Source: a virus | DNA length: 64,000 nucleotides | IMG/VR virus record: IMGVR_UViG_3300021389_000005 | Span: 32,001-96,000 of that record | Direction: 5' to 3' (one strand) | In this document: positions 2 to 42,683 of the stretch, in pieces | Numbering within the stretch: the first letter of the stretch is position 1 | Layout: every line of letters begins with the position of its first letter | Notes under the pieces: model-generated | Databases searched by the model: none | The model's input: only the letters and a program-made list of their open reading frames with translations | Told to the model about the DNA's origin: nothing | Position numbers and translations under genes: made by a program

Positions 2-3000
2 ACATATGCTATTTCTGTTCAGCCCACAAAAGGTGTTGCCACATTAGATACAGCTAATTCTACAGTTTCATATATACCAAACGGTGGTGAAACTGGACCT
101 GATTCAATAATATTGACTGCGACAGACAGCCAAGGATCTCCAACAGACACTAACATTACTATTGCTATTCAATTTCCGGCATATTTTGAAATTTTAGCAA
201 CTTCATTTTTTAATAATGAAGATGACGCATGTTTAGATCCTGCAACAGTTGCAGTTTGGTTTTCTACACAAAACGCAACACAAATAAGCGATCTTGCTGT
301 AGGTGACAAAATATACAACGATGCCAATGGAAATGGTGTTTATGCTTCTGGATTTTGTAAAATACAACAAGGATCTTTAGAAAAAGTTGTACAGATAGGA
401 TCTGATGGAGCTATTCTATCGATTGATAATTGTGATGCTCAATCTAATTTATTTCAATCAACTAGAGTTAGATATTCTGGGTCGGAAACAAATTTATGTA
501 ATGATCTTGGAGGTGAAGTAGTTGATATATTTTATGGAATTTCAAACCCTTCGGATCCATCACAAGACATAGCAACACTTGTTGCAAATAACACACCATT
601 GTTTGTTAGTAGTTATAGAGCAAATCAATATGCTAACGGATTTAACAATGATTTAGAAGGCTTAATACCTGCAGGTTTATATCAAGGACTCACTGAACCA
701 GTCTTTTATTTTAAAAGAGGTGGCGATGATTCTTGGATTACAGTCAATCCGAATGATTATCAATTCAAATGTCCTGATCCTATTGTATATGACACATTTA
801 GTTTAGGATTATTAAGCTATGATACCAGCGTTGACGATCTTTGTAATTCAAACACCGACAGCATTGAAATATTTTATAGATTACCACAAGTTGATGGATT
901 TTCACAGTCGGCTGCAACTCTACTTGAAATAGCACAAGGTAATATCCCAATATTTACAAGTGAAAGAGCGGCCACTGAAAACTTAATAGATGGTTTGGCT
1001 CCAAGTGGAGTATATTCTATTGATACGGATGAATATTTTGTATGGAACAACGAAGGTGATGGATTTGAATATAACTGGTATGGCTTTAATAGTCAAAATC
1101 AATTTGTAAAAGATTCACAAATTACACGACCTGGAAACTGTTCACAATATGTTAGACCTGACATGAGCAATAATGTAGGTGTAACAACAGGTGACGGTGG
1201 ATTAAATGACACTAATGTATATTATGCGTTTTATTCATGTGCTGCAAATACTGATCAAGAAAATATATTAGGAACCGTTTCTCAATACTGGAATTTATAT
1301 GTAGTAGATGCTGGCTTTGATATGACGCTAACAGATGAAGGTAATTCAGTAGAAGTAGGGGAAAGCCCACTTAAAGGATTTTTAGAAAGCCTTAACTTAG
1401 CACCTAATGAATCTGTAACAATTAAACCAAATGGATTTGATTGTTTAACATATGTACATACAGTATGGTCAGAAACTATAAGCGATGCAATAAATGTTCT
1501 TAAGGTTAAAGGATTCGATACAAATGGAATTAAGATATCTGCTACTAACGCGGTTGATCTAGGTTTTGGAAGTGAGAATGAAATTTATTCATATGCAGAA
1601 TCTGGATGCCAAGCATGTAAAGATGACGTTGCACCATTAGCGACATACACTTTACCGTTTATTGACGGTGATGTTATTGAAGCATTAGGTCCTAACTTTA
1701 ATCTAGAAACTAATTATAAATTAGATAATGTTTCTAGACCTCTTTTAAGAACAAATCCTAAACTTACAACAAATATTAAATTAGTAGTAAATGAAAGCGA
1801 TAATCTATATTTAGAAAGTATAAACGCAACTAAAGAATTGGCATCAATCGAGTATAAAAAGTTTCCAATTAATAAAGATGGAAAATATTCATATGACGTT
1901 GCTAATTTTTATAATGTAAACATGACTCCCAATAAGATCATGTTCCAAACTAAAAGAGATTATTCTGATATTACCGTTTTAGATAGTTATGAAAAACAAA
2001 TTGAGGAATCATATCAATATGGTGCTAATTACAACTTCTCTAAAGCACATGAAGAAGACTTTAGAATTTTTGCTCCAATTTGGTTAGATACACATATACC
2101 TAGAAATTTTGTTATCTACAGAGTTAACGATCCTGTGGGTTCTTTGGATCTAAAGGACAACGCTGCTGATAATTTTAGAAGAATACAAAATCTTCTTCAA
2201 AATGCAGAGATTATTAAATCATTTGATTTAACTAGAAATTCTAACATTGGTACGTATTTAAGAAACCACGTCCAAGATGAAACTTTCCCTAAATCTCCGA
2301 TTACTGTTAATTTTGAAAAGAAAGAAAAATCTAGTTTTAACGGTATAGATCTTATTAAAGGTGGATTTACTAGCAAGGGTGAATACTTATATAAAGATTA
2401 CATCTTAACTGATAAACCTTTAATAGAGGCTAATGATTATATCACAGATGCCTTTAGAAGAAATGAAATCGCATCAGCAAATCTAATTAATTTAGAATTT
2501 TTATTTAATGATAACCTAGCAGAAGACTATAGTGTAAATAGATATTTCGGATTATTCGTAGACGAAATAGATTCTGGATATGGTAGAATATTTTCAATAG
2601 ACGGTAAAATTCATCAGTTTAAAGAATTAAATTCTTTAGTGGATCCATCATTACCAGAAACAGCAATACCATCACATAAGCAAGTTACTACTATGCCAAT
2701 GTTGGCATATGCAAGCGCAGGTAATAGATTTTTCAATATTTCTAGCAACACAGTATATGATGATAGTGAATGGAAAGTTGCAATAGAAGATGGTGATAAT
2801 TACATATCTAGTCAATTAGGCATAAAACAAACTGGCAGGTCAATTGATCTGGTTGAAAACAATGATCATGGCTACGACTTCATTAAGCTAAATGTAGTAA
2901 ATACGCCGTACACTAACGATTCACTAGGGATCACTAATATCAAAGAGGAAGCTAATAAATTTACGTTTATTAAGCACGTCGAAGGTGAAGTAATTGTATT

Positions 3001-6000
3001 TGCTATTGATAATCCTTTAGATATAAATACACCTAAAACATTTTCAATAACAACATCTGCAGAAATGCCAGATACCGTTAAAACTATTTTTAATAAAGTA
3101 ACTGCAGGTACGGATTTAGATGGGCAACCTCTTAATGCTGGAACCGGAGTTGGTGAACTAGAAGATTCTGAATTATTTAGAGATATTTTTGATATAACGT
3201 TTGATAGCGTAAACCTAACGGGTGTTAAAAGTTTCTTTTTTACAGAAAAAATAGCAAATTTAGGTGATTTAAATCTAAGAATAATTTCACAGGGAGATTG
3301 TATTATTAGAAACGACGAAATCCAAACTAATTTAAATCTACAAAATAGCATATACAGGGCAGAATCACAATTAGAATCAAAAAGATTCGAAGGATATAGA
3401 TACTCCAATCAAGGTACATCTACCGATATAGCAGTAGCATTGGCAGCATGTATTGATAGTAACGAAACTAGGTTTTCAGCATATAATGTCGGATCTTCGG
3501 TTTATATTGTAAGCGCTGTTTCAGGTTATGAATTAATGCAATCTTGTTTACTATTAGGAAAGGGTAATGTTAATGAATTCTTAAGTATAGATAATGCTGA
3601 CACATTTAATAGATTACAATTAAGAGAATCTATAGACCTATTACCTGGTCATGCTATTCTAGAAAATTATGATTCTTATTTCTTATCTGGAGGAAATGCA
3701 CCTGGAAAATCAGTATTTGTAAATAATGAAACACTCAGCGAAATAAGCGCTAATGATTATATAGAAACAGAATATAAGGGCGTTTATAACAAGGTGATTG
3801 ATGTGGTAGAAGATATTACTAGAACCGACAGTGAATATTCTAAAATAATATTAGAAAACAAAAACGACTTAAAAGACGGTGACAGTAAAGTTTATTACGA
3901 AAACGAGGTTAGACTTGGTTTATTTTCTGCATACAACATATATGACTTAAACGTTGATTTTTATGACACTTCTAATTCTGATATAAAAGAGTTAGCGTAT
4001 GAAACTCAATCTGAAATAGATTATGAGCCTTACACGAATGCCATAAACAATGTAGATCCTACTACTGGAATTGAAACCACAATATTAGGAGCTAGAGATA
4101 TTTTTAGCGAGGATTTTGAATTAAACCCTATTGATTATTTTTCTAATCTATCTAAGATACTGACTGAAGAATCAGTTGATGATGAAGACGATGTTCAAAT
4201 AACTTCAGAATATGATAGACTTAAGGAAAATAACCTAAAACAATATGCTATTAATTCTAGAATAGTACCAAATATTAATAAATGGGTACTTAAAGATACA
4301 GTTACTGTAAGAGAGCAGCCATATTATTTAAATGTTAACGAAGCTTTTGGTAGAACTAATTTTTCTCCAGATTTAACTGTATCTGAAAGAAATAGAGAAT
4401 CAATGACACATGAGTGGTTTTACATTGAAAAACCACCAAAATATTTAAAGTATAACGAAATCAACGATACTTTTAGTTATGTTAATTTTATAGAGGGGTT
4501 TGATTTAAGCGCCAACTTATTTAGAAGCACAACTAATGATTATTTTAATGCATTTATGGTAAGTGATGGTTTTGAAAAAACACTTACTGAAGAAGATTTA
4601 GTAGATATTTACGATGATATTTTAGAAGGTGATCCTGAAATAAATTCAATAGGAGGTTCAATTACTTCGTTTATTAAAACCAATATACTAAAAAAATATT
4701 CATTAATAAGCGGTGGTAATAATATGTCACATGCTAGTACTATATTTAAAGGAATTAAAGTTGATTTTAAAAATAGAAAAGAATTTTTAAATCCAATTGC
4801 AACAGAAGTTGTGAAGAGTAGCGAATTTAATGGTTATAAATTTAGCGTATTGCTTAAAGTAAACGAAGACGCTAGTACGAATAGTATATCGTATGAAGTA
4901 ATTCAAAATAAAAAGTTTAAATTCGTTATAATGTACATTACATTGAATTTAGGTGATTATTGGATTGACAACAATATGAATAGAAAACTTCTTTATGAAT
5001 TAAATCACAAAATAGTGTTTGATTCTGACCAAGAAGATTTTACATACGCAGATACTAAATTTAACGGTGCATTACAATTTAATGACCCTTCTATTAACTG
5101 GTCAGACGAAGGACCTTACACAATTCCTGGTATATCGCACACAAATGGATCTTTACCAAAATTTGATTCTCAAATAACACTGGGCGATGATGGTCTATAC
5201 GGAGAGATTCTTTTAGATTTATTTCCGAATGACGATACTAATTCTATCTATAAAGTTTCAGTAACTGCAGTAGATTCAGATAATTCATTAAAAATATCTG
5301 GTAAGCCTGTCAATATATCTGATAGTACTGATATTTTAAATGTTGAATTCTTACCTAATTCTATCCAAAGAGGTGCAGAATACACATATGTCGGTGGTGG
5401 AGCCAACGCACATAAAGTTATTTTAGAAAAGCTAACGGCAAAATCAGTTGCAGATTTAGTTAACCTAAACAACGACGAGATTGTATACACTACTGTTGAT
5501 GTTGATGGAACAGTACATAACAATAGATTTGTTATAAACTTTAGTGATGGAACAGAAGTAATACAAAGGTCTGAGCTTAATATAGAAGAAGATACTGATA
5601 AGCCTAAAAGTTTTAAATTATTTAAAGGTAATATAGGTTATAATTTAATGTCAGAATCTGAATACTATCCATTTTTAATTAGACATAATGGAAACTACAC
5701 GGTAGACATGAAGCCTGTCGTTACATTTACAGATCCATATTCTCACTTTAAAGTTAATAGGTTGCATTTAACAAATAATGCAAATGAACTTAAATTTGAG
5801 GAATTACTATATAAACACTCTTTAACAAACTTAAGTGAATTTAATAGAGCAGATGCATATTATAGAAGATATAACAGGTGTGGTGTTATGTTTAACTTAG
5901 GTTTTATTAGTGATGATGGAACTCATGATTCAAATTGGGGATTAATTCAAAATCATTTCTATCATAAAGTAAATGAAATTAATCCGAGCGGTGTAACTAA

Positions 6001-22044: not shown

Positions 22045-23889
22045 ATGGCACTACAAAACCTAAAAACATATTTTGAATCTACTAATATCAATGACTTTAA
22101 TGAGTTATTGAGTAACATATGTGTTGTAACAGAAAAAGTGCAAGCATCAAGTTTTCACGTAAGAAGAGAAGAGGTTGGTAAATTTGAATTTTTTAAGAGT
22201 GGTTCAAAAATTGCAATGAATCGCGTAGATAGAACTCTCGTTAAATATTATGAAAATGCCATTAAACATTTTAACACTATTTCAGACGAAGCGTTAAATG
22301 AAATGCCAAAAGATTGGAAATTTGGATTTGATTACATGGTAGATAAGAAAACTATCGACATAGAATATGACTTATTACCAAAAAACAATTTAATACTAAC
22401 ACATATACAGGTACTTAACGCAACAGATCCTACGAGAGTTAAGAGAGTTATTAGAGATCCTAGAATTCTTGAGAAGTGGGCAACTAAACTAGAAGTACAA
22501 GAAATATCAGTTTTATTTGAAGGTCAATTAGCATTGAATCAAAAAGAAGATCTAATAGACTTATTGTCTTTAGGTGAATCAGAATTTAAAACTAAATTTG
22601 AGAAGGAATCATTTACAAGGTTAATATACAATATATTCGATAACGGTAGAAATAAATCAGCATTAAATCTAGATTTAGATAAAGATATTGATGCATTGGT
22701 AGTAAACTTCTACGAGAATAGAAATCCTAAGAGTTTTAAACTAGAAAGATTTGATAGAATTGAATCAGAGCCTAGAAAACCATCTGACATGTATCAAATA
22801 TCTATATTAGATTTAGTTGAATTTTTAACAAGTTTTGATATATCAGATATAGAATTAAAAGAAGAGGACGCAGATCTTAGATATGTAGAATTAATGTCAT
22901 CTATATTTAATGCTTACGTAGAAAAGCACGCAACTAAATATGTAGGCGCAGATTTTGATTCAGCAGATTTTGCAGAAGGTGAAAACTTTGAACTTAATAC
23001 AGCATATATCTCTAATGAGAAAACCCTCTCACTAGTACAAAACAAAGTGTTATCGGAACTTTTTAAAATAGCACTCGGTTCTTTTAGAAAAAAGAGAAGC
23101 AAAGAAACTGATATTATAAATTCAGATCTTATGTCTCAGATTAATGAAATAGTTGAAGAGATAGAAACTATCATAATGGGTAAAACAAACGAAAAAGATG
23201 TAATGGATTTTAAAAAATATCTAATTAATCAAAAACTAAATGGCGACGTAAGTCCAATAATGGAAGGATTAACTGTAGACTATCCAGATCAGGGTAAAAA
23301 GCTAGTTAATATGTTTGTTGGTAGATTTCAGCCGTTCACATTAGGACATGCTAAGGTAATAGACACTATTAGCAAACAAAACGGACATCCTGTTGTTGTA
23401 ATATTGATTAAATCAAAGACTAAGAAAAAAGAAGATGCTTTTAAAAGACCTTATGATGAGGAAACTCAATTAGCAATGCTTAATAAATTAAAGTCTAAAT
23501 ACCCAATAGAAAAAGTATACATTTTAGATAGAGCGGCAATAGATTATATGTTTAACGCAATGAGAGCCGATGGTTACGAACCGGTACTTTGGGGAACAGG
23601 AACAGATAGGCTCAAAACATATTCGTATCAAGTTGATAAACCAGAATATAGAGAATCTTTAAATTGTAGAGAAGATTTCGGTTTATTTGAAATCCCTAGA
23701 TCTGGTAAAAACATTTCAGCAACACAAGTTAGAAATGCAATGTTAGACGGTGATGAAAAGACATTTAAAAAATTAACACCTAGACCAATTCATGGTATGT
23801 ATACTGAATTGAGAACAAAATTAGAGGTTTCTATGGGTGTTGCAGAGTCAAAATTCATGACATTTGAACAGTTTGTGAAGAAAGACTAA
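22045..23889 (+). CDS. Degenerate ligase-fold domain fused to a HIGH-family nucleotidyltransferase (cytidylyltransferase/NMNAT-like)
   Basis: N-terminal VTEKVQAS (decayed KxDG); C-terminal GRFQPFTLGH, GTDR and ISATQVR. Confidence 0.72.
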   Translation: MALQNLKTYFESTNINDFNELLSNICVVTEKVQASSFHVRREEVGKFEFFKSGSKIAMNRVDRTLVKYYENAIKHFNTISDEALNEMPKDWKFGFDYMVDKKTIDIEYDLLPKNNLILTHIQVLNATDPTRVKRVIRDPRILEKWATKLEVQEISVLFEGQLALNQKEDLIDLLSLGESEFKTKFEKESFTRLIYNIFDNGRNKSALNLDLDKDIDALVVNFYENRNPKSFKLERFDRIESEPRKPSDMYQISILDLVEFLTSFDISDIELKEEDADLRYVELMSSIFNAYVEKHATKYVGADFDSADFAEGENFELNTAYISNEKTLSLVQNKVLSELFKIALGSFRKKRSKETDIINSDLMSQINEIVEEIETIIMGKTNEKDVMDFKKYLINQKLNGDVSPIMEGLTVDYPDQGKKLVNMFVGRFQPFTLGHAKVIDTISKQNGHPVVVILIKSKTKKKEDAFKRPYDEETQLAMLNKLKSKYPIEKVYILDRAAIDYMFNAMRADGYEPVLWGTGTDRLKTYSYQVDKPEYRESLNCREDFGLFEIPRSGKNISATQVRNAMLDGDEKTFKKLTPRPIHGMYTELRTKLEVSMGVAESKFMTFEQFVKKD

Positions 23890-28790: not shown

Positions 28791-28947
28791 AACTACATTT
28801 TTTCTAAGAAGAGAAGACGAATATTCTCCAGAAATTATTTACGCAGTAAAACACTGCAAACGACCTGCTGCCACAAAGGCATATAAAAATCTTATCGGTA
28901 TGTTTAATCGAGGGGAAATAGCAGGATATGGTTGGAAACGAAACTAA
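28783..28947 (+). CDS. Small hypothetical protein (54 aa), not in the ORF track
   Basis: MYRTTFFLRREDEYSPEII...GYGWKRN; exactly fills the gap. Confidence 0.55.
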   Translation: MYRTTFFLRREDEYSPEIIYAVKHCKRPAATKAYKNLIGMFNRGEIAGYGWKRN

Positions 28948-28959
28948 AATCAATATAAC

Positions 28960-29262
28960 ATGAATACATTTGACAAAATTAAAATAGTTAAAGAAGCTGT
29001 ACAAAAATTCTTTGATGATAGTGCAGAACAATTTATACATGATAATGATATTATTTCATGGGAAGAAAATCATATCGTAACAACAGGTACCCAAATCATG
29101 TGTAAAAAATGGAATGTCAATGACATGGGAGGCGGATTTGTCCAATCAGTTATAGACAATGATTTAAGCAAAACAATGGCCTCAGCTGACAACATCAATA
29201 TGCACGCTGTCAGATTCTACTGTGCTATGATTTATAACGTATCTAAACCTAAACGTATATAA
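28960..29262 (+). CDS. Hypothetical protein
   Basis: GGGFVQSVIDNDL..A.A motif; 100 aa. Confidence 0.6.
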   Translation: MNTFDKIKIVKEAVQKFFDDSAEQFIHDNDIISWEENHIVTTGTQIMCKKWNVNDMGGGFVQSVIDNDLSKTMASADNINMHAVRFYCAMIYNVSKPKRI

Positions 29263-29328
29263 TGTTAGGAAACTAACGCTTTGCAGCCATCAGCGCGAGT
29301 GCAGCACTAAAAGAGTCGAATAAATAAT

Positions 29329-29356
29329 TAAACAAATTATACTTTGTGTGTATAAT
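29329..29356 (+). promoter_or_regulatory. TAAAC-N17-TATAAT promoter heading the DNA-modification operon
   Basis: One-mismatch variant of the GAAAC-N17-TATAAT motif. Confidence 0.55.
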
Positions 29357-29371
29357 AACTAAATAAATCAC

Positions 29372-29683
29372 ATGTCTAAAAATAAGAAATCAAACATTCT
29401 ATCTGAAGCTAACGACATCGTAAATAATCGTTCTGAAGAAAAATCACGCCAATATGGCCCATTCGAAGAAGGTATGAGACGCGCAGCAATGATATTCAAT
29501 GGTATGACCGGCCAAGACCTTAACGGTTCAGATATGTATGCTGCGTTAGTAGCTTTAAAGCTAAGCAGACATTCATACAACTATAAACAAGATAATTTAT
29601 TAGATGCAGTAGCTTACTTAGGTGCATTAGATAACTATGTAGATAAACATGGTTATAAAGAAAGCGAGGATCCATTAAAATAA
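29372..29683 (+). CDS. DUF6378-like all-alpha nucleotide pyrophosphohydrolase
   Basis: ILSEA..IV..R....YGP...LKLSR......DNLLDAVAY pattern. Confidence 0.7.
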   Translation: MSKNKKSNILSEANDIVNNRSEEKSRQYGPFEEGMRRAAMIFNGMTGQDLNGSDMYAALVALKLSRHSYNYKQDNLLDAVAYLGALDNYVDKHGYKESEDPLK

Positions 29684-29687
29684 AAGT

Positions 29688-30749
29688 ATGACAGAGTTAA
29701 CATTTTTTACAGAACAGGAAACCGATAAGTCGATTAAAGTCGGCATTTGTGCATTGGTTGGTAAAATTAGCCCAAAAATCTCATCACATAAAGGTGCGTG
29801 GGCCCATATGCTATTAAATCAATTGCAAAATGCTGGTTTTGAAAACGCAGAAGTAATCACATCTAATCAAACTGATTGGAACGACTATGACGCAATTCTT
29901 ATTGATCATGGTATGGAATTCAAAGGCACCTTCAATATATTTGGAGGATCTAATGATGATTTATATCACCAATTAATGAGGTTATTTACACCAGTCAAAA
30001 TGTATTCTTTACACCATGACATGCCAGATATTGGTAACTTAATTAAAACTAGACTTAAAGCCGGTACAGATTTATTTAAAACACTTGAATCTAGAATTGA
30101 AGAAGCTACAGAAATCTGTATGGAAATACAAAAGATTGATCATATTGAAAAAACTGAAAAATTATGTTTTGGTGATAGTCACTCTTTTGGAATGTATCAA
30201 GCAGGATATATGTGCCAAAGACACGATGGATTAACAATGCACGGTGCACTTAAGCGCGGTTTACAAAGCTATGTTTATCCATGGGTAAATGAACTTACAG
30301 TTTATATGGGTAATATCGATGTTCGACATCATCTAATGCGTCAGTCAAATCCAAGCGCTGCGGTTAAAGTACTTATAAAAAGATACGAAGAAGAACTTAT
30401 CGGATTAGGCATTAATAACATTGAAATTGTAAATGTTTTACCTATTGAAAACGAAAGTAGACCTTTACCAAAAACAGGGTACTATAAAGGAACACCTTTT
30501 GCTGGGACTTGGAATGAACGTACAGAATTAGTTAAAGAAATTAATACTGGAATAGAAGACATGGCACAAAGAAACAACTGGAAGGTTTATAAACACCCAG
30601 AAGTTTATTTTAACGCCAAAGGTGAATTAACTTTTGATGTAATGGAAAAACCTAAATCTGTACATATATCCAGAGAATATTATAGATGGAACATGGAAAA
30701 AAACGAAGCAAATAAAAATTTAATTAAACAAACACTATCTTTATTTTAA
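29688..30749 (+). CDS. SGNH/GDSL-like acyl hydrolase/transferase associated with DNA modification
   Basis: FGDSHS (block I), YMGNIDVRHH (block III-like), KSVH (block V-like); C-terminus QTLSLF. Confidence 0.55.
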   Translation: MTELTFFTEQETDKSIKVGICALVGKISPKISSHKGAWAHMLLNQLQNAGFENAEVITSNQTDWNDYDAILIDHGMEFKGTFNIFGGSNDDLYHQLMRLFTPVKMYSLHHDMPDIGNLIKTRLKAGTDLFKTLESRIEEATEICMEIQKIDHIEKTEKLCFGDSHSFGMYQAGYMCQRHDGLTMHGALKRGLQSYVYPWVNELTVYMGNIDVRHHLMRQSNPSAAVKVLIKRYEEELIGLGINNIEIVNVLPIENESRPLPKTGYYKGTPFAGTWNERTELVKEINTGIEDMAQRNNWKVYKHPEVYFNAKGELTFDVMEKPKSVHISREYYRWNMEKNEANKNLIKQTLSLF

Positions 30750-30898
30750 TGAAAGCAGACGAAAAATTCAACATAGAAATTACCTACAACGGATCAGGTA
30801 AAACCGAAACAATAGTAATAGAAACTAAAGACATCGAGTGGTCAATGACACAATTTCAAAGAAATAGACCATCGTTTAATTGGAAAATTATAGATTAA
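30749..30898 (+). CDS. Small hypothetical protein (49 aa), not in the ORF track
   Basis: TAATG-coupled start; MKADEKFNIEITY...TKDIEWSMTQFQRNR.. Confidence 0.55.
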   Translation: MKADEKFNIEITYNGSGKTETIVIETKDIEWSMTQFQRNRPSFNWKIID

Positions 30899-30899
30899 A

Positions 30900-31697
30900 A
30901 TGCAAATATCTCCAAATGAAATAGCTAGAATAGCACAAATAGCATTTGTTCTAGAACCTATAGCTAATAAACCTGGATTAACAACTAGATATGCCGATAG
31001 GAATAGAAACTTAAAGCTAGAAAACTTCCTAGTAGCTGGTATTAATACAGGAGATTCATTTAGAGAATTAGCAAAACGAGTTTACGAATCTAAAGATTTA
31101 CCAATAACGTATGATATTGCACTACAAGCTCAAAAAGATTCATTTAAAAATAGACAAGGTAGTAGACTTATATATGGCGGTATAATTAGTTTATTTCCAT
31201 TGATCATAACACAAACACATATCCGGTCAACTGATCCATATGCAATTCTAAGCAATGTAGAAGATGTATTAAAACAAACACACAGAGAAGATGCAGTACA
31301 TCTTCAAGAGTTAGAAAACTATGCTTATAGTTTTGGTATTAATCATAAACAATATATGTTTGAAGTAAAGGATGAATATGAAAATGTCTGGGATTATTTA
31401 GAAAAAGATTTGATATCAATAGGAGAAATAACACAAACACATTGGAAGGACAGAGCTAAAACAGGATCATCGAATAAAGAAATATTGAATGGATATCCTA
31501 TTGTAAAGGCCATGTTAGATATTTATTACAGTACTATAAAAAATAAAGAATGGCGAGGAATAAGTCAAACAACAGAAGAAATAGATTTCTTAATAAGAAG
31601 AGAATTTCCAAATGCACACATTCAGTGGTTAGCAGATCTACATGTATGTTTGATGTATTTGATCTTATGTCATGAAAATAAAGAATTTTTTGTATAA
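30900..31697 (+). CDS. Divergent CitG-like (triphosphoribosyl-transferase fold) protein
   Basis: IARIAQIAFVLE..NKPGL..R, ENFL, G.I.L.PL, T.REDAV and LAD match the archaeal-type CitG pattern; the NT(N/H) and NPG motifs are altered. Confidence 0.65.
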   Translation: MQISPNEIARIAQIAFVLEPIANKPGLTTRYADRNRNLKLENFLVAGINTGDSFRELAKRVYESKDLPITYDIALQAQKDSFKNRQGSRLIYGGIISLFPLIITQTHIRSTDPYAILSNVEDVLKQTHREDAVHLQELENYAYSFGINHKQYMFEVKDEYENVWDYLEKDLISIGEITQTHWKDRAKTGSSNKEILNGYPIVKAMLDIYYSTIKNKEWRGISQTTEEIDFLIRREFPNAHIQWLADLHVCLMYLILCHENKEFFV

Positions 31698-31709
31698 AAT
31701 AAAAAAGCA

Positions 31710-32918
31710 ATGAACATAACAACAACCAAATATTACGATGAATTCTTAAGATATTTTGAGCTAGCCAAAAAACAGCAAGATCTAAGTAATCTTGGTCATG
31801 TTCCACATGCAGAATCAAAACTAGATGACGAACTAATGCATCACATAGAATTATATGATGTAGTAGAACGTAAATATGCTGGATTTTCCCAAATAATCAA
31901 TGACTGTTTTTATGGTTGGAATTCAGATCATCCATATTGGTCAAGAATGGAAGCAGGATTATACACACCACAGCGAATGGAAGTGGCCACTAATTGGAAT
32001 TCTAAGAGAGACGAATTTGGCTTAGAAGAATGGCTTTACATCTTTATACTTCACAGAGTATGTGGATCTGCCATTAATTATGCTACTAAGCCTTCAGGAT
32101 ATCACAACACTATTTTATTTAATTTACACGAATGTGAAACTATAGAAGAAATGTGTGAAGTGATCAAACATCATCCTACACCCTTTTATACTTCAGTTGG
32201 TTATCAATTTCCAGCATTTCCAAAACCACCAAAACCAGAAGTTAATGAAGATTCATTCGTTGGCATGTCAGGTTTTACAAAACCAGAATATGTGTATAAA
32301 AGAGGTGGAGATTATTTCTTATGTGAATTTGCACCAAGAATGGCCAGAGACATGGCAAACTTCTTAAGAGAAGGTGGTAAAAAAGACTTAAGAGAATTGG
32401 GTGAATGGATGTTTAAGTGGAATGCAGATAATGGCTTAAGAGCTTATAGATTTCAATATGCTGCAGTTATTGCAGATGTTTGTGATTGGTACCCTGAATT
32501 TATGAATAGAGAATCAATGTTCTATTATGGTACTAACGCAGTGGAATGCATTGGCTATCTTGCAGATCCTGTAGAAAAGAAAGGTAAGAAGTCTGAAGAG
32601 TTTTTAGATGCAGTAATGACAAAGATTTATGAAGATACAGGCTCACTTCCGTATAATGCAGAAGATGTAGCATGTGACTTTATCAGATGGATAGAAAACT
32701 ATTTGAGACCTGGAAAAGATTATGCACATATAAACATGGACACTTTGTGGAATTCTTCTTCGATTATAGATCATCCATATGGTAGGCAAAAAGCTATGTT
32801 AGATTTAGGTTTAGTAGAAACATTCAATGACATGACTCAATTTCCATCAGACGACAAAGTATTACAAGGGGCAGGAGTCTCGGTTGAAGAGTATAAAAAA
32901 ATGGTAGCAAAAATATGA
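31710..32918 (+). CDS. Amino acid:DNA transferase-like protein (aGPT-Pplase, HhH-glycosylase fold), paralogue 1
   Basis: YDVVER, FQYAAVIAD, YGTNA..CI and AEDVACDFIRW correspond to the N-V-x-R, F..Q..D, GPGA and E..LCE..KY motifs. Confidence 0.65.
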   Translation: MNITTTKYYDEFLRYFELAKKQQDLSNLGHVPHAESKLDDELMHHIELYDVVERKYAGFSQIINDCFYGWNSDHPYWSRMEAGLYTPQRMEVATNWNSKRDEFGLEEWLYIFILHRVCGSAINYATKPSGYHNTILFNLHECETIEEMCEVIKHHPTPFYTSVGYQFPAFPKPPKPEVNEDSFVGMSGFTKPEYVYKRGGDYFLCEFAPRMARDMANFLREGGKKDLRELGEWMFKWNADNGLRAYRFQYAAVIADVCDWYPEFMNRESMFYYGTNAVECIGYLADPVEKKGKKSEEFLDAVMTKIYEDTGSLPYNAEDVACDFIRWIENYLRPGKDYAHINMDTLWNSSSIIDHPYGRQKAMLDLGLVETFNDMTQFPSDDKVLQGAGVSVEEYKKMVAKI

Positions 32919-34021
32919 GTGAAGAAGTAAAAGAAATCAAAAAAGAAATTAAGCAAGCACCCGATCAAGGTGTTTTGTTTACATTTGATGATGATATCAC
33001 ACAAGAGTACAGTAACATCACTTATGACGGAACTAATACAAATATAAAATTTAAGAAGAAGAAACCTGCAGAAAGTTGGATGAAAGACTGGTCAGAAGAA
33101 TTGAGATTAGCTAAATTCTTTGAATTCTGTCATGAGTTTGATAAGCGAGAAGATAGATTACTATTAGAAGATTATCAAATATTTTCCCATAGATTACACT
33201 GGCATGAACATCCTTATTGTTATATGATGCAACATGAGACAGATCTAGAAAAATTACTTTATTATACTATTGTGTTTTCATTCTCTAACGAACATTGGGG
33301 AACCATTACTAAATTAATTAATCAAGGTGAAGAAAAGACTAGAGCACATTTTGTAGAAAATAGACATGCTAGGAATGATTTATTTCAGATCTATTATCCT
33401 AAAGGTACAATAGTTAAAGATTGGTTAATTGAAGGACCTAAAAAAGCAGCTAAAGACATGGCTCATATTCTAGAAGATTTAGAAAGACCATACACAATGA
33501 TGGAGTTTGCTAAATTATTAGAAGCTTATTTTAAAGAACATCAAAACTTTAGATCACCTTTATATCCATGCAAAAACACAGCAAGATATGTAGCTATGAG
33601 TAGACCAGATCTTGTTGATCCTGAATCTATTTTATTCGGAGGTACTGGACATTTTGATGGTATGCAACAAATATTCGGTGGAGTTAATCTTAATGGTAAA
33701 GTAAAATATTCTATTGACTCAGATGGACAATTTATTGCAGAGAATAAACATGCTGAAGAATGGCTAAGACAAATGGATGTACTTGTAAATCATCCAAATA
33801 ATCCAATGGAAAGTCAAAAGTATTTAAACGTAGAAGATAAAACATGTTTCTTCTATAAACACATTGCAATTAGTCATGGCATAAAATCACCAACAAAAAG
33901 AATTCCATATACATGGATATTTGATGGTAAATTTAATTTAGCTAAGAATCCAGATAAAGAAATTAATGTTAACGCAGATACTACTCGACATTTATGGGGT
34001 AGAGATTATCCAAACGAATAA
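32915..34021 (+). CDS. Amino acid:DNA transferase-like protein (aGPT-Pplase), paralogue 2
   Basis: FF.F...FDKRE, FGGTGHFDG and NVEDKTCFFYK; ATGA-coupled to paralogue 1. Confidence 0.55.
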   Translation: MSEEVKEIKKEIKQAPDQGVLFTFDDDITQEYSNITYDGTNTNIKFKKKKPAESWMKDWSEELRLAKFFEFCHEFDKREDRLLLEDYQIFSHRLHWHEHPYCYMMQHETDLEKLLYYTIVFSFSNEHWGTITKLINQGEEKTRAHFVENRHARNDLFQIYYPKGTIVKDWLIEGPKKAAKDMAHILEDLERPYTMMEFAKLLEAYFKEHQNFRSPLYPCKNTARYVAMSRPDLVDPESILFGGTGHFDGMQQIFGGVNLNGKVKYSIDSDGQFIAENKHAEEWLRQMDVLVNHPNNPMESQKYLNVEDKTCFFYKHIAISHGIKSPTKRIPYTWIFDGKFNLAKNPDKEINVNADTTRHLWGRDYPNE

Positions 34022-34024
34022 AAT

Positions 34025-34921
34025 ATGGCACACGATAAACACACAACAAGTTCAATGAATCAAGATTTAAATCTTATGATGCCTAATAGACAGGCATGGT
34101 TAGATTTAGCAGGAGATTGGCAAGATCCACTAGATGATCCAATTATTGTGAATCATGAAGGATTTAATGTAGTAAGAGATGATATGATGGGCTTTGGATC
34201 TAAATGTAGATTTGGAGATATCTTAGTACAGAAAGCACCGACCGATACATTAGTATATGTACAACCTAGATTTGGATTCGCAGGAATTTCTCTTGCATAC
34301 TTAGCAAAAAAATATAATAAGAAATTAGTATTATTTATGCCATCTGGTAAAGTAATATCAGATCATCAAGCCATATGTATTGAAAGAGGTGCTATTGCTA
34401 AATTTAGAAGAATCGCAGCAATGCCTAATTTAAATAGAATTGCAAAACAATGGGCAGAAGATAACAACGCTACATTTATTCCACTAGGACTTAAACATGA
34501 ATTGGTAACTGCAGCTGCGGTAAAAGTTGCATATGATGTAGCAGAAAAACACGGATATCCGGAAGAAGTATGGTCAGCAATATCAACTGGAGTTTTACAA
34601 CGCTCTTTACAAATTGCATGGCCAGATGCTGAATTTAATGCAGTTGCAGTTTCTAGAAATATTCAGAACGGTGAATTGGGTAGAGCTAAAGTTTGGTCTC
34701 ATCCAAAGGCATTTGCATCAGATGTAAAACCAGAATTTGCCCCTCCGTTTCCATCAGCAATGAACTACGATGCAAAAGCTTGGGAATTTATGGTTAAGCA
34801 TGGAAATCAAGGAGCTTGGTTTTGGAATGTAGGTGGACAACCTTACCCAGAATCAGAAGAAACTAAAGAAAAAACAAATTCAAAAAGAGAATGGGGAGAA
34901 GTTTTAGAAATAGACAAATAA
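34025..34921 (+). CDS. PLP-dependent fold-type II (PALP) enzyme, probable decarboxylase/lyase acting on a DNA-linked amino acid
   Basis: VVRDD...GSKCR (PLP lysine), GFAGISLAYLA, STGV, YDAKAW, FWNVG. Confidence 0.8.
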   Translation: MAHDKHTTSSMNQDLNLMMPNRQAWLDLAGDWQDPLDDPIIVNHEGFNVVRDDMMGFGSKCRFGDILVQKAPTDTLVYVQPRFGFAGISLAYLAKKYNKKLVLFMPSGKVISDHQAICIERGAIAKFRRIAAMPNLNRIAKQWAEDNNATFIPLGLKHELVTAAAVKVAYDVAEKHGYPEEVWSAISTGVLQRSLQIAWPDAEFNAVAVSRNIQNGELGRAKVWSHPKAFASDVKPEFAPPFPSAMNYDAKAWEFMVKHGNQGAWFWNVGGQPYPESEETKEKTNSKREWGEVLEIDK

Positions 34922-34972
34922 AAACTGAAACTATCTCAAATAAGATCATAGGAATAATATACAAAAAAGAAC

Positions 34973-35437
34973 ATGGCGAACATAGACAACAAATGCGCAG
35001 ATCTTGATATTCAAGATTATCACAAAGATACCAAAGACACTTTTGGTTTACTCTTTGACAAACAAAAAGAATTACAAGCTAGATTAGGTTTTGACTTTAA
35101 AGGTTGGAGCATTAAAGAGATTGCAGATTTCTGGATGGTGAATAAACATGCAATGAGCGACGAGCTTAATGAAATGTTTGATGCACTTGGAGGAATTAAC
35201 GACGGAATCGGCAATGCAGGTTGGAAATATTGGAAAAAGGATAATGCTAAGACTCCTGAAATGAAAATTGAAGATCTTAGTGAAGAAGACAAATTAGAGT
35301 TATTTTATGAGTGGATTGACGGTCTTCATTTTTATATGAACTTTGCAATTTCAATTGGCATGACAAGTAAAGACATTGTTAACTTGTACATGGCAAAGAA
35401 CGCAGAGAATCACGACAGACAAGAACGAGGATATTAA
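34973..35437 (+). CDS. Dimeric all-alpha dUTPase/MazG-like NTP pyrophosphatase
   Basis: QKELQ, DELNE, WKYWK, EWIDGLHF, Y.AKN.EN..RQ.RGY. Confidence 0.85.
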   Translation: MANIDNKCADLDIQDYHKDTKDTFGLLFDKQKELQARLGFDFKGWSIKEIADFWMVNKHAMSDELNEMFDALGGINDGIGNAGWKYWKKDNAKTPEMKIEDLSEEDKLELFYEWIDGLHFYMNFAISIGMTSKDIVNLYMAKNAENHDRQERGY

Positions 35438-35458
35438 TCAACCAACACACTCAATCAT

Positions 35459-36862
35459 ATGCTATTAGATATAGAGCAAAAAGAAAACGAAGTCATAATC
35501 AGTTATTACGATAAAGAAGGCAAAGTATCATTTAAAAGATATTCTGTTAACAAATTTGAAAATTGGGTAGTTACTGAAGAAAAGGATCGTTGGAAAGATA
35601 TTAAATTTAGAAACTGGGATAATCGCCCAATTAAGAGATCTATCTCAAGAAGTTTTAATAAATTTAGTTTGCTCTATTTTATGGATTCTCTACCACAAAA
35701 GGATCAAGATGAAATCTTCGAATTTAATATGCCACGCACATACTTTGTGGATATTGAAACTGAAATTGTAGATGGTTTCCCAAAAGCAGAAGAAGCTAAA
35801 ACCAGAATTCTATCATTCTCTATCATTACACCTGAACGTAAAGCAATTGTTTTAGGTTTAGAAGATATGAGTTCAGATCAAATCAAAAAGATTGAAGATG
35901 ATACCAATGCTCATTTTAAAGATTATGATCAGGATTGGGAATTCAGTTATTACAAGTTTGATGACGAGTATAACATGGTATATACATTCTTACATAAGTT
36001 TTTACCTAAGTTCCCAATGATGACTGGTTGGAATTTCATCAACTATGACTGGCAGTATATAGTTAATAGGTGTAAAAGATTACAAATAGACCTGACTGAC
36101 GTGGCAATCACTGGATCTTTAGATAGAAACGATAGTAGACCATTACACATGGGAATATTAGATTATATGCAGCTATATGATAAATATGATAGATCAGTTG
36201 CTGTAAAAGAATCTAATTCATTAGACTTTGTATCTAGCGCAGTATTAGATGTTGCAAAGATTAAATACACTGGTGGTTTACAAGAACTATACGAAAATAA
36301 CTTCCAAAAATATATTTACTATAACGTGGTCGATTCATGTTTAGTATATTATATAGATAAACAACTTAGATCAATGGAAGTACTATTGACATTAGCAACT
36401 ATAACTAGAATGCCACTTTACAAAGCAGCATCTCCAGTGGCAGTAACAGAAGCGCTTATAGCTAGAAAGCTAATCGGTCAAAATAAAAAAATTGGAATGG
36501 AATGGAATAAAGAAGATGCAAAGAAAGACGGTAAATTTGAAGGAGCATTCGTTAAACAACCAATTGTAGGTTATTACTCTGGAGTTTCAGCGTTTGATTT
36601 TGCATCTCTATATCCATCAATTATGCGTCAATTTAATATATCTCCGGATGCATTTGTTGAACAAGTAAATGAAATGGATATTCCAGAAAGAAGAAAAGAT
36701 AAAGACGTAATCGTCTGTGAAAACGGAGTTGTTTATAAGAAAGAAGATAGTATTCTTAAAAAAATATTGGCAGATTTATATGGCCAACGTAAAGAATATA
36801 AAAAGACTTCTTATGAATATTATGAAAAAGCCCACGAACTAGAAAAAAAATTAAAGTCATAA
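35459..36862 (+). CDS. gp43A: DNA polymerase B, N-terminal subunit (exonuclease plus motif A)
   Basis: DIETE, GWN..YD, YNVVD, FEGAFV, FDFASLYPSIMRQFNISP; ends in the fingers (RKEYKK). Confidence 0.92.
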   Translation: MLLDIEQKENEVIISYYDKEGKVSFKRYSVNKFENWVVTEEKDRWKDIKFRNWDNRPIKRSISRSFNKFSLLYFMDSLPQKDQDEIFEFNMPRTYFVDIETEIVDGFPKAEEAKTRILSFSIITPERKAIVLGLEDMSSDQIKKIEDDTNAHFKDYDQDWEFSYYKFDDEYNMVYTFLHKFLPKFPMMTGWNFINYDWQYIVNRCKRLQIDLTDVAITGSLDRNDSRPLHMGILDYMQLYDKYDRSVAVKESNSLDFVSSAVLDVAKIKYTGGLQELYENNFQKYIYYNVVDSCLVYYIDKQLRSMEVLLTLATITRMPLYKAASPVAVTEALIARKLIGQNKKIGMEWNKEDAKKDGKFEGAFVKQPIVGYYSGVSAFDFASLYPSIMRQFNISPDAFVEQVNEMDIPERRKDKDVIVCENGVVYKKEDSILKKILADLYGQRKEYKKTSYEYYEKAHELEKKLKS

Positions 36863-41474: not shown

Positions 41475-42683
41475 ATGAATATCGAAGAGCTAGAAAATAA
41501 ATCTATCGAGGAATTAAATGATAATGAGGCGAAGCTGCTTGTAGATCACTACAAGCAGCTTTCAGCCAAATACACTGCATATGAACAAGCAGTTAAGTTA
41601 ACACTAAACTCGATCTACGGAGCCTTCGGTAATAAGTGGTTCCACTTTTTTAATATTGACATTGCCGAGTCAATTACAAAACAAGGTAAAAACGCAATTC
41701 TTTATTCAGAAACTATTCTCAACAAATATGTTAATGAGTTTTGGCACAAAGATGCTGCAGTACATTCTCACTTTGGAATTAAAGTAAAAGGTAAAATAGA
41801 AAAGCCAGCAGTAATTTATATTGATACAGATTCATGTTATGTACAGTTTCAAGATTTATATGAATCTATAATTTGGCCAGAAGAAACAGAGAAAATGGAA
41901 ATCGATGTGTTTATTTTAGCACTTTATGGTTTCAGACTTAGAGATTACATTACTAAGTGTATGGAGAAATATGCAGATAAAAGAAACTCAGATAATTATT
42001 TGATGTTTGAATTAGAAGCGCTTGCATATAATGGTATTTGGATGTCTAAGAAAAAGTATATTCAGAACATTGCATGGGATGATAAATTAGAAACCACAGA
42101 CAGGCATACTTCATTAAAGAAAATTAAAACAATTGGTTTTGATACTATTCAATCATCTACGCCTAAATTTGCAAGAGAGAAACTAGTTGAAGCTCTTAAA
42201 ATTATATTTAAAAGTAGAGTAACTCCAACAGCAGAAGATCTTCAAACATTAGTTGTTTTCATGAAAGAAACAAAAAAGCAATTTAAACTTGCAGATATTG
42301 ACGAGATTTCTTTTAATAGAAGGACTAACAATATTGACAAATATATTGTTGATGATCAGAAAGAATTTCAAATAGGTCTAAAATGTCCAGCAAACGTTAA
42401 AGCAGCCGGATATTACAATTACTTATTGAATAACAATAAAAAATATAAAAACAAATATAAGGTTATCGGTAACGGTGAAAAACTAAAGATCTACAATTGT
42501 AAATCACCAATATCTGAAGTATATGCATATATGCCAGGAGATCATCCTTATGAAATTGCACCAGAAATTGATTACGATACTCAATTTGAAAAAGCAATGA
42601 TCGATCCTCTTAATAGAGTATTAACAGCGATTGGTCTACAAACACTAGATACTAACCTAATTTACGCATCGTCGTTATTTTAA
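41475..42683 (+). CDS. gp43B: DNA polymerase B, C-terminal subunit (motifs B and C, thumb)
   Basis: KLTLNSIYGAFGN, AESITKQG, YIDTDS, KKKY, SSTP; ends ASSLF. Confidence 0.92.
   Translation: MNIEELENKSIEELNDNEAKLLVDHYKQLSAKYTAYEQAVKLTLNSIYGAFGNKWFHFFNIDIAESITKQGKNAILYSETILNKYVNEFWHKDAAVHSHFGIKVKGKIEKPAVIYIDTDSCYVQFQDLYESIIWPEETEKMEIDVFILALYGFRLRDYITKCMEKYADKRNSDNYLMFELEALAYNGIWMSKKKYIQNIAWDDKLETTDRHTSLKKIKTIGFDTIQSSTPKFAREKLVEALKIIFKSRVTPTAEDLQTLVVFMKETKKQFKLADIDEISFNRRTNNIDKYIVDDQKEFQIGLKCPANVKAAGYYNYLLNNNKKYKNKYKVIGNGEKLKIYNCKSPISEVYAYMPGDHPYEIAPEIDYDTQFEKAMIDPLNRVLTAIGLQTLDTNLIYASSLF

Follow-up and report, generated by a model that had tools for sequence, protein, structure and literature searches.

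We analysed a stretch of 64,000 nucleotides (hereafter the window), which covers bases 32001-96000 of the 126,361-bp IMG/VR virus record IMGVR_UViG_3300021389_000005, a genome fragment estimated by CheckV to be 43% complete. The subject of this work is a packed operon in the window whose products resemble enzymes of DNA hypermodification. An earlier reading made from the letters alone (the sequence-only reading) had noticed this operon, named seven of its genes and proposed that they hypermodify DNA. All seven open reading frames (ORFs) were confirmed, all on the plus strand, and the operon adjoins the gene for the N-terminal part of the DNA polymerase on its upstream side (Table 1). The predicted folds, the family of the pyridoxal phosphate (PLP) enzyme and the synteny in relatives all support the proposal, and we conclude that this is a real, conserved DNA-hypermodification operon.

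Table 1. Genes of the operon, in window coordinates
Product	Position	Strand	Basis
DUF6378 protein, 103 aa, first gene of the operon	29372..29683	+	Pfam PF19905, E 4.3e-12; phrog_474, E 1.6e-12
ORF2, 353 aa, SGNH-type motif set in the C-terminal half	29688..30749	+	motifs; phrog_13881/17781, E ~1e-58
Conserved 49-aa ORF, start overlapping the ORF2 stop codon	30749..30898	+	homologues in relatives L011 and L050
CitG-like protein, 265 aa	30900..31697	+	Pfam CitG PF01874, E 8.2e-11
ORF4, 402 aa, core protein of AADT/aGPT-Pplase fold, presumed DNA base transferase	31710..32918	+	predicted fold
ORF5, 368 aa, optional protein of AADT/aGPT-Pplase fold, distant ORF4 paralogue	32915..34021	+	predicted fold
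Fold-type-II PLP enzyme, M6 gp52 family, 298 aa	34025..34921	+	phrog_7093, E 4.6e-39
T4 gp56-like dCTPase/dUTPase, 154 aa	34973..35437	+	BLASTP against T4 gp56; Pfam dUTPase_2, E 1.1e-8

Gene content and packing of the operon

The spacers between the genes measure 4, 12, -4 (an overlap), 3, 51 and 21 nt. The sole apparent gap, 150 nt in length (30750-30899), is itself an ORF, and the operon is therefore completely packed. This 49-aa ORF has 54-aa counterparts with 46-52% identity in the equivalent slot of two relatives and carries the motif D-I-E-W-S-M-x-Q-x-Q-R-N-R..F.W.I-I, with no family match in NCBIfam; the CitG-like gene starts 1 nt past its end. We had considered the 150-nt spacer as a promoter or an insertion scar, and rejected both in favour of the conserved ORF. 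The motif TATAAATA has no occurrence in window positions 28901-36000.

General databases say little about these proteins. Against NCBIfam the operon proteins gave nothing but a 17-bit dUTPase match, and neither a megablast search with the operon nor tblastn searches with ORF4, ORF5 and the CitG-like protein matched any of 50,697 phage records. The DUF6378 label given to the first gene holds, its Pfam match being above the cut-off, and its product is a presumed nucleotide-pool enzyme; phmmer found no match for it among PDB sequences. The last gene had been called dUTPase-like, which is correct and can be refined, as its product is a homologue of T4 gp56 (BLASTP, 33% identity over 145 aa, E 1e-24).

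A conserved core of three genes

Eighty viral loci with an ORF4 homologue were fetched, and 35 of them counted as well flanked, the sequence running on for 3 kb or more upstream of ORF4 and for 4 kb or more downstream. Up to 9 kb from ORF4 these 35 loci contain ORF2 in all cases, the PLP enzyme in 34, the polymerase N-part in 33, the gp56-like gene in 31, the DUF6378 gene in 30, ORF5 in 22 and the CitG-like gene in 2. The conserved core consists of ORF2, ORF4 and the PLP enzyme, with ORF5 optional. Distant phages whose polymerase is not split carry a reduced set, either ORF4-(ORF5)-PLP-ORF2 (loci L062 and L075) or ORF4-unknown-ORF2 (L068), and other relatives carry further inserts in the region, namely a LOG/SLOG-like gene (L011, L055) or a cytidylyltransferase-like gene (L033). 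At E<=0.001 we found 939 homologues of ORF4, none of them named and most of marine metagenomic origin.

ORF4 and ORF5 have the predicted fold of amino acid:DNA transferases

ORF4 and ORF5 have no match in Pfam, PHROG or NCBIfam, nor among PDB sequences, where phmmer was used. We therefore turn to their predicted structures; the ORF5 model was built from a 17-sequence alignment of diverse homologues (pLDDT 86.4) and the ORF4 model from a 24-sequence but shallow alignment (pLDDT 72.9). Both model as the helix-hairpin-helix (HhH) glycosylase-like fold of amino acid:DNA transferases (AADTs), with the PUGT protein of phage PaMx11 as the top PDB match, and the predicted structures show the two-helical bundle of that protein (PaMx11 gp46/PUGT, PDB 8z2m). 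The sequence-only reading had staked its proposal on the genes starting at 31710 and 32915 encoding HhH-glycosylase or aGPT-Pplase folds; since both proteins model in this way, the proposal is not refuted on this count.

In a Foldseek search of the PDB the ORF5 model found nothing at E<=0.001, with 8z2m at rank 2 (E 0.44). Against BFVD it had five matches at E<=0.001, including two proteins annotated "Amino acid:DNA transferase domain" as well as a Pplase1 protein and an HMUDK_hel protein of phiRSL1, and proteins of PhiW-14 and SP10 rank just under these five. The best BFVD match of ORF4 is likewise an "Amino acid:DNA transferase domain" protein (56% identity, E 1.1e-33), and the ORF4 model also reaches the relative of ORF5 in BFVD at E 0.042. 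Among the ESM Atlas neighbours of ORF4 and ORF5, the families PF18723/PF18724 are found on 11-57% of members.

The relationship between the two proteins is distant. Direct BLASTP of ORF4 against ORF5 gave E 0.21, and hhalign of the two families gave a weak match (E 3.2e-4, probability 39%, 127 columns) that pairs two common motifs, P-x-x-V-(D/N)-x-E-S...G-T and N-x-E-D-x-x-C. The earlier description of them as two aGPT-Pplase-like paralogues is thus borne out by the predicted folds and by this weak profile match, without support from family models. An E-x3-C motif is invariant in the ORF4 family (E318, C322) and conserved in the ORF5 family (E307, C311); in both it lies in a late long helix, and the two align to each other in hhalign. 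The M6 gp51 clade likewise has an E-x3-C (E243/C247), which may or may not correspond residue by residue to those of ORF4 and ORF5. In PUGT, E243 and C247 contact DNA and the target nucleoside (PMC11472151). From the models we suggest that ORF4 and ORF5 share the AADT fold and would work like AADTs; we do not claim them as members of the curated families.

The PLP enzyme belongs to the family of M6 gp52

The PLP enzyme matches phrog_7093 over profile positions 14-278 of 279, and M6 gp52 falls in the same PHROG as its founding type (E 2.2e-159). Lee et al. showed that M6 gp52 decarboxylates DNA-bound C-alpha-glycinylthymidine, with K36 as the likely Schiff-base lysine (PMC8989533). K60 of the window protein aligns with this K36 and is invariant in the seven sequences aligned, as is the C-terminal motif PFP..YD.K.W..WN.G; the K60 region also weakly matches the PLP-lysine region of cysteine synthase (E 0.021). 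The assignment as a PLP enzyme stands on the PHROG match and the retained lysine, the Pfam PALP match (22 bits) being under the gathering cut-off of 35. We presume that this enzyme, like decarboxylases of the M6 gp52 and ViI gp226 type, decarboxylates an amino-acid adduct.

A gp52-type PLP domain also lies inside a ~810-aa "DNA modification methylase" of Erythrobacter phage vB_EliS_R6L (gp1, L081), and similar fusions are found in ZS04 and in Microcystis phage Mae-JY30. These fusions are one more link between the PLP family and DNA modification.

ORF2 carries SGNH motifs and no P-loop kinase is seen

Two motifs of ORF2, GDSH (162-165) and GNID (208-211), are invariant in all nine homologues aligned, down to 33% identity. 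We take them to be SGNH blocks I (GDS) and III (GxND). The homologues keep, besides the motif-bearing C-terminal half, a separate conserved N-terminal half. The earlier SGNH-like label is supported by these motifs and less so by Pfam, where Lipase_GDSL is sub-threshold (E 0.024; 15.2 bits, cut-off 23.6) and found in two of the nine members; the ORF2 profile found nothing relevant among PDB sequences, its only match being a pectate lyase at E 0.94. A possible kinship of the N-terminal half with T4 beta-glucosyltransferase was considered and set aside except as a lead, as the BLASTP match (E 8e-4 at 19% identity) is too weak and hhalign (E 0.021, probability 2.3%) is not significant.

Cultured phages have homologues of ORF2 as well, in 38 records from Aeromonas, 3 from Tenacibaculum and 2 from Stenotrophomonas phages. 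One is Aeromonas phage 31, where the first third of ORF233c (L082; 795 aa, no Pfam match) is ORF2-like; this phage has a gp42 homologue (55% identical) and no beta-glucosyltransferase match. Phages 44RR, 31 and 25 were described as positive for gene 42 and negative for glucosyltransferases, the fate of their 5-hydroxymethylcytosine (hmC) being left open (Petrov et al. 2010, PMC2993671). ORF233c makes a candidate for an enzyme that modifies hmC in a cultured phage.

The sequence-only reading had noted the absence of both a dUMP hydroxymethylase and a DNA kinase for 5-hydroxymethyluracil (5-hmU), termed 5-HMUDK, near the operon, and indeed neither was seen in the whole 126 kb of this 43%-complete record. 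A search with M6 gp54 found no 5-HMUDK at E<=1 in any of five records (32-76% complete), and the 5-HMUDK PHROG, phrog_800, gave only two P-loop fragments of 19-22 bits, with stops, in two of these five incomplete records. None of the operon ORFs carries a Walker A motif, and in three compact clusters of relatives the sole Walker A match falls inside an ORF5 homologue; there is no P-loop kinase in the operon or in these three relatives. The earlier suggestion of a different activation chemistry is therefore plausible, given an SGNH-motif protein in 35 of 35 loci and no P-loop kinase in the operon or the three relatives, and it is at this step that ORF2 may act. ORF2 could act on the hydroxymethyl group, for example by transferring an acyl group to make it a leaving group, or by tailoring an ester; we put this forward as inference only.

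In relatives, hydroxymethylases linked to the module are of the gp42 type

The record itself contains no gene of the thymidylate synthase (TS) family, no ThyX and no Tet_JBP. The earlier note had treated the missing hydroxymethylase as meaningful; since only about 43% of the genome is at hand, its absence proves nothing. The first bases of the record map to ~59 kb of a 212-kb relative (G001), and much of the genome is therefore unseen. Relatives are more informative. PF00303 matches were found in two of five large relatives and in three of 20 further records, the latter three all inside compact clusters, whereas Tet_JBP and ThyX were each found in none of five records. In L062 the order is a TS-like gene (2554-3300), a 163-aa ORF, a dCMP-deaminase-family gene, ORF4, ORF5, the PLP enzyme and ORF2, and L075 and L068 are similar.

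The TS-like proteins of L062, L075 and L068 are 50, 60 and 52% identical to T4 gp42 and share the motif RSNDVVFG-YxND. Their residue at the position of T4 D179 is Asp, and in both the M6 dUMP hydroxymethylase and the canonical ThyA of G001 it is Asn. We take Asp versus Asn at this position to mark cytosine versus uracil specificity, after T4 dCMP hydroxymethylase and thymidylate synthase. The TS-family genes of the phage's own clade, in G004 and G001 (L088, L089), also have Asp and are 43% identical to each other, which brings the count to five of five module-linked divergent TS-family genes. These Asp-type proteins fall far under the NCBIfam thymidylate-synthase cut-offs, as does gp42; the G001 gene is split in two frames, and the G004 gene adjoins guanylate-kinase-like and dTMP-kinase-like genes. 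These data show a physical link between the module and an hmC route in relatives, and the same probably applies to the phage studied here. The framing of the operon around 5-hmU and thymidine is probably wrong on two grounds, the gp42-type hydroxymethylases with Asp and the gp56 homologue as the operon's pyrophosphatase.

The first 15 kb of the 212-kb relative (G001:C1:1-15000; L087, L089, L100) form a stretch of 41% GC. Besides the frame-split Asp-type hydroxymethylase it encodes two canonical enzymes, a PALP protein and the ThyA, which scores above the NCBIfam cut-off, together with a LOG-like gene, ClpP and fragments of ClpB. This stretch may represent host-derived auxiliary genes or an assembly chimera.

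The CitG-like gene is an accessory insertion

The CitG-like label was correct, with a PF01874 match that scores 42.5 bits (cut-off 27) and spans profile positions 1-195 of 284; phmmer gave no match to PDB sequences. Only 17 homologues were found in 5.8 billion proteins, all from phages or marine metagenomes, and an N-terminal motif, E..KPGLT.R, is kept in all 15 that were aligned. In IMG/VR the gene occurs only on the two closest contigs. A metagenome scan yielded 16 CitG-like loci, 10 of which were examined (L109, L111, L112, L114, L116-L119, L121, L122). The other six were set aside, since L108 and L002 are one and the same contig and L110, L113, L115, L120 and L123 span 1.0-1.6 kb. None of the 10 has operon genes beside the CitG-like gene; its neighbours there include an 815-aa cytidylyltransferase-DUF6267 protein, a GSCFA protein, an NAD-epimerase/glycosyltransferase and a methyltransferase. 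Given these changing neighbours and the lack of operon genes in 10 of 10 loci, the gene is best seen as a mobile accessory insertion that gives no evidence for the core chemistry. In marine phage-like contigs an ORF of 77-84 aa often precedes it.

The resemblance to CitG itself (triphosphoribosyl-dephospho-CoA synthase) lies in the Pfam match and the N-terminal motif, and the difference in the lack of partners: no CitX/MdcG and no acyl carrier CitD/MdcC was seen among the Pfam hits of the record ORFs scanned or among the neighbours at the other loci. By comparison with relatives, the gene appears to be a recent lineage-specific insertion between the 49-aa ORF and ORF4 that is not needed for the core chemistry. 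The sequence-only reading had counted it as part of an unusual chemistry, a view not supported by its presence in 2 of 35 relatives and its unrelated neighbours elsewhere.

The phage and the surroundings of the operon

The record has a GC content of ~32% and carries nearly every gene on its plus strand. It includes T4-type hallmark genes (gp32, UvsW, UvsX/RecA, a gp41-like helicase, gp46/47-like genes, portal gp20, prohead protease, gp23, clamp loader, terminase and sheath), and it therefore belongs to a T4-like myovirus; the phage is an uncultured marine member of this group. Completeness estimates for relatives (212 kb at 76%, 150 kb at 53%) lead to an expected genome size of ~280-290 kb.

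Two genes make up the family-B DNA polymerase, one for the N-terminal (exonuclease) part at 35459-36862 (+) and one for the C-terminal part at 41475-42683 (+); nrdB, nrdA and two small ORFs separate them. Close relatives keep this split, and the clade of L068 and L075 has a single gene of 824-847 aa. Elsewhere in the window are a 614-aa protein with a C-terminal cytidylyltransferase-like domain (22045-23889, +) and a 2-oxoglutarate-Fe(II) oxygenase (PF13640; 44500-45111, +). The record (G000) also encodes an Amidoligase_2 protein (G000:C1:16751-18061) and an Fpg/Nei glycosylase (G000:C1:117335-118186). Lee et al. report Amidoligase_2 beside hypermodification genes (PMC8989533).

Discussion

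We propose, with a probability of roughly 55%, that the operon encodes a post-replicative, kinase-independent hypermodification module, most likely of hmC, with ORF2, ORF4 and the PLP enzyme as its core. From gene content, predicted folds, family memberships, synteny and the gp42 linkage in relatives we infer the substrate base, the order of the steps and the role of ORF2 as follows. A gp42-type hydroxymethylase encoded elsewhere in the genome, together with the gp56-like dCTPase/dUTPase of the operon, would bring a 5-hydroxymethylpyrimidine, most likely hmC, into the DNA, while the DUF6378 and gp56-like proteins would adjust the nucleotide pool. The hydroxymethyl group would then be turned into a leaving group without a P-loop DNA kinase, ORF2 being the candidate for this step, for example by acyl transfer. 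ORF4 would flip the base out and substitute an amino acid or amine, and ORF5, where present, might serve a second substrate or sequence context. Finally, the PLP enzyme would decarboxylate or otherwise trim the adduct, and the CitG-like gene would at most add a lineage-specific step.

A more detailed scheme remains tentative, and we hold it to be possible rather than likely: abundant marine T4-like phages would use hmC for cytosine, activate it by SGNH-type acyl transfer through ORF2 without phosphorylation, attach an amino acid by a very divergent AADT and decarboxylate this by a gp52-type PLP enzyme, which would yield an undescribed aminoalkyl- or aminoalkoxy-methylcytosine; in the lineage of this phage the CitG-like enzyme would add or alter another step.

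Several observations weigh against the proposed module. The Pfam models PF18724 (ADDT) and PF18723 (HMUDK_hel) match neither ORF4 and ORF5 nor anything else in the record at E<=10; none of the 24 ORF4-family members matches either model, and only 3 of 17 ORF5-family members touch HMUDK_hel, with a best E of 0.0038. Against a seven-member alignment of the M6 gp51 clade (which took in M6 gp51, PhiW-14 gp109 and SH-Ab 15599) the profiles of the two families gave hhalign E values of 0.78 and 0.15, and against single M6 gp51 E ~0.5. In two compact clusters the gene immediately upstream of ORF4 is of the dCMP-deaminase family (L062:4106-4633 and L075:9120-9710), so that a uracil route is possible; the record has such a gene too (G000:C1:1670-2176), and the substrate of these enzymes may be dCMP or hm-dCMP. 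Homologues of gp56, moreover, are near-universal in T4 relatives (PMC2993671).

The deaminase genes would fit a classical thymidine pathway, the frame chosen by the sequence-only reading. Either the 57% of the genome that is unsequenced would encode a dUMP hydroxymethylase and a 5-HMUDK, or hm-dUMP would arise from hm-dCMP by deamination; ORF4 and ORF5 would then have phosphorylated 5-hmU as their substrate, like the enzymes of M6, ViI and PaMx11. The AADT fold, the M6 gp52-type PLP enzyme and the incompleteness of the record would all fit such a pathway, and according to Lee et al. all characterised AADTs act on 5-phosphomethyl-deoxyuridine (5-PmdU; PMC8989533). Against it stand the Asp rather than Asn in all five module-linked divergent TS-family genes, three of them close to T4 gp42, the lack of a 5-HMUDK or Tet_JBP in the five records searched, and the lack of a Walker A protein other than ORF5 in the three compact clusters. 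We consider this pathway unlikely.

It is less probable again that the CitG-like enzyme is integral, for example by transferring a triphosphoribosyl or ribosyl group to the hydroxymethyl group as an activating group or final decoration, which would make the base different from that of relatives lacking the gene. Its position inside the operon with spacers of 1 and 12 nt, the motif kept in all aligned homologues, and the other nucleotide-type inserts taken up by the slot between ORF2 and the PLP gene (LOG-like and cytidylyltransferase-like) speak for an integral role, while the rarity of the gene in relatives, the unrelated neighbours at its other loci and the missing CitX and acyl-carrier partners speak against it. 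Weakest of all is the idea that there is no hypermodification and that ORF4 and ORF5 are divergent HhH DNA glycosylases, for repair or attack on the host, among unrelated nucleotide-metabolism genes beside the replication module: PUGT tops both structure lists, the nearest BFVD and Atlas neighbours are annotated as AADT or Pplase, and ORF4 is coupled to the gp52-type PLP enzyme, to ORF2 and, in three lineages, to gp42, as in known hypermodification clusters.

To our knowledge, all characterised amino-acid-type DNA hypermodifications are on thymine and all begin with a P-loop DNA kinase. The thymidine clusters of M6, PaMx11, ViI, PhiW-14 and SP10, as Lee et al. present them, combine a dUMP hydroxymethylase, 5-HMUDK, an AADT/aGPT-Pplase, a PLP decarboxylase and radical S-adenosylmethionine or flavin tailoring enzymes (PMC8989533). 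The operon resembles them in its paralogous pair of AADT-type fold, in a PLP enzyme of the M6 gp52 PHROG with the equivalent lysine, in its place by replication and nucleotide-metabolism genes and in its combinatorial accessory genes. It differs in that no 5-HMUDK was found, that the linked hydroxymethylase is of the gp42 type with the cytosine Asp, that an SGNH-motif protein is the universal third member, that ORF4 and ORF5 are missed by the Pfam models and the M6 gp51-clade profiles, and that the host phage is a T4-like marine myovirus.

With the hmC pathway of T4 (gp42, gp56, gp1 and glucosyltransferases) the operon shares its gp56 homologue and, in L062, L068 and L075, gp42 homologues by the module; the ORF2 family also occurs in gp42-bearing Aeromonas phages without glucosyltransferases. 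Unlike in T4, no match to a glucosyltransferase family is seen here, and the predicted decoration would derive from an amino acid, by way of an AADT-fold enzyme and a PLP enzyme. In Burke et al. (2021) a P-loop kinase and an aGPT-Pplase acting on TET-made hmC were proposed, not shown (PMC8256090). Their metavirome clusters share with our proposal the idea that hmC, besides 5-hmU, is handed to aGPT-Pplase-type enzymes; there, however, hmC would arise after replication through a C5-methyltransferase and TET, with a P-loop kinase present, whereas here we see no Tet_JBP and no kinase, and the gp42-type route is pre-replicative.

The cassette is most likely a kinase-lacking variant of the AADT-type pathway that works on hmC, and the DNA of the phage probably holds a decorated cytosine not yet described. 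A literature search, mostly outside subscription journals and without supplements, found no description of the cassette. A pelagiphage study reports TS with Pplase1 in podoviruses, and marine myoviruses with TS and without Pplase (PMC9599517). Lee et al. mined metaviromes with 5-HMUDK queries only (PMC8989533), and kinase-less clusters would therefore have been missed.

If our proposal is true, a widespread marine cassette, as the many ORF4 homologues indicate, would extend amino-acid-type chemistry to cytosine, and hydroxymethyl bases would be activated by a new route, with an esterase-type partner instead of a kinase. It could also explain what becomes of hmC in Aeromonas phages 31, 44RR and 25, the question left open by Petrov et al. 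(2010), and it would predict that marine viromes contain bases that bias their sequencing and restriction analysis.

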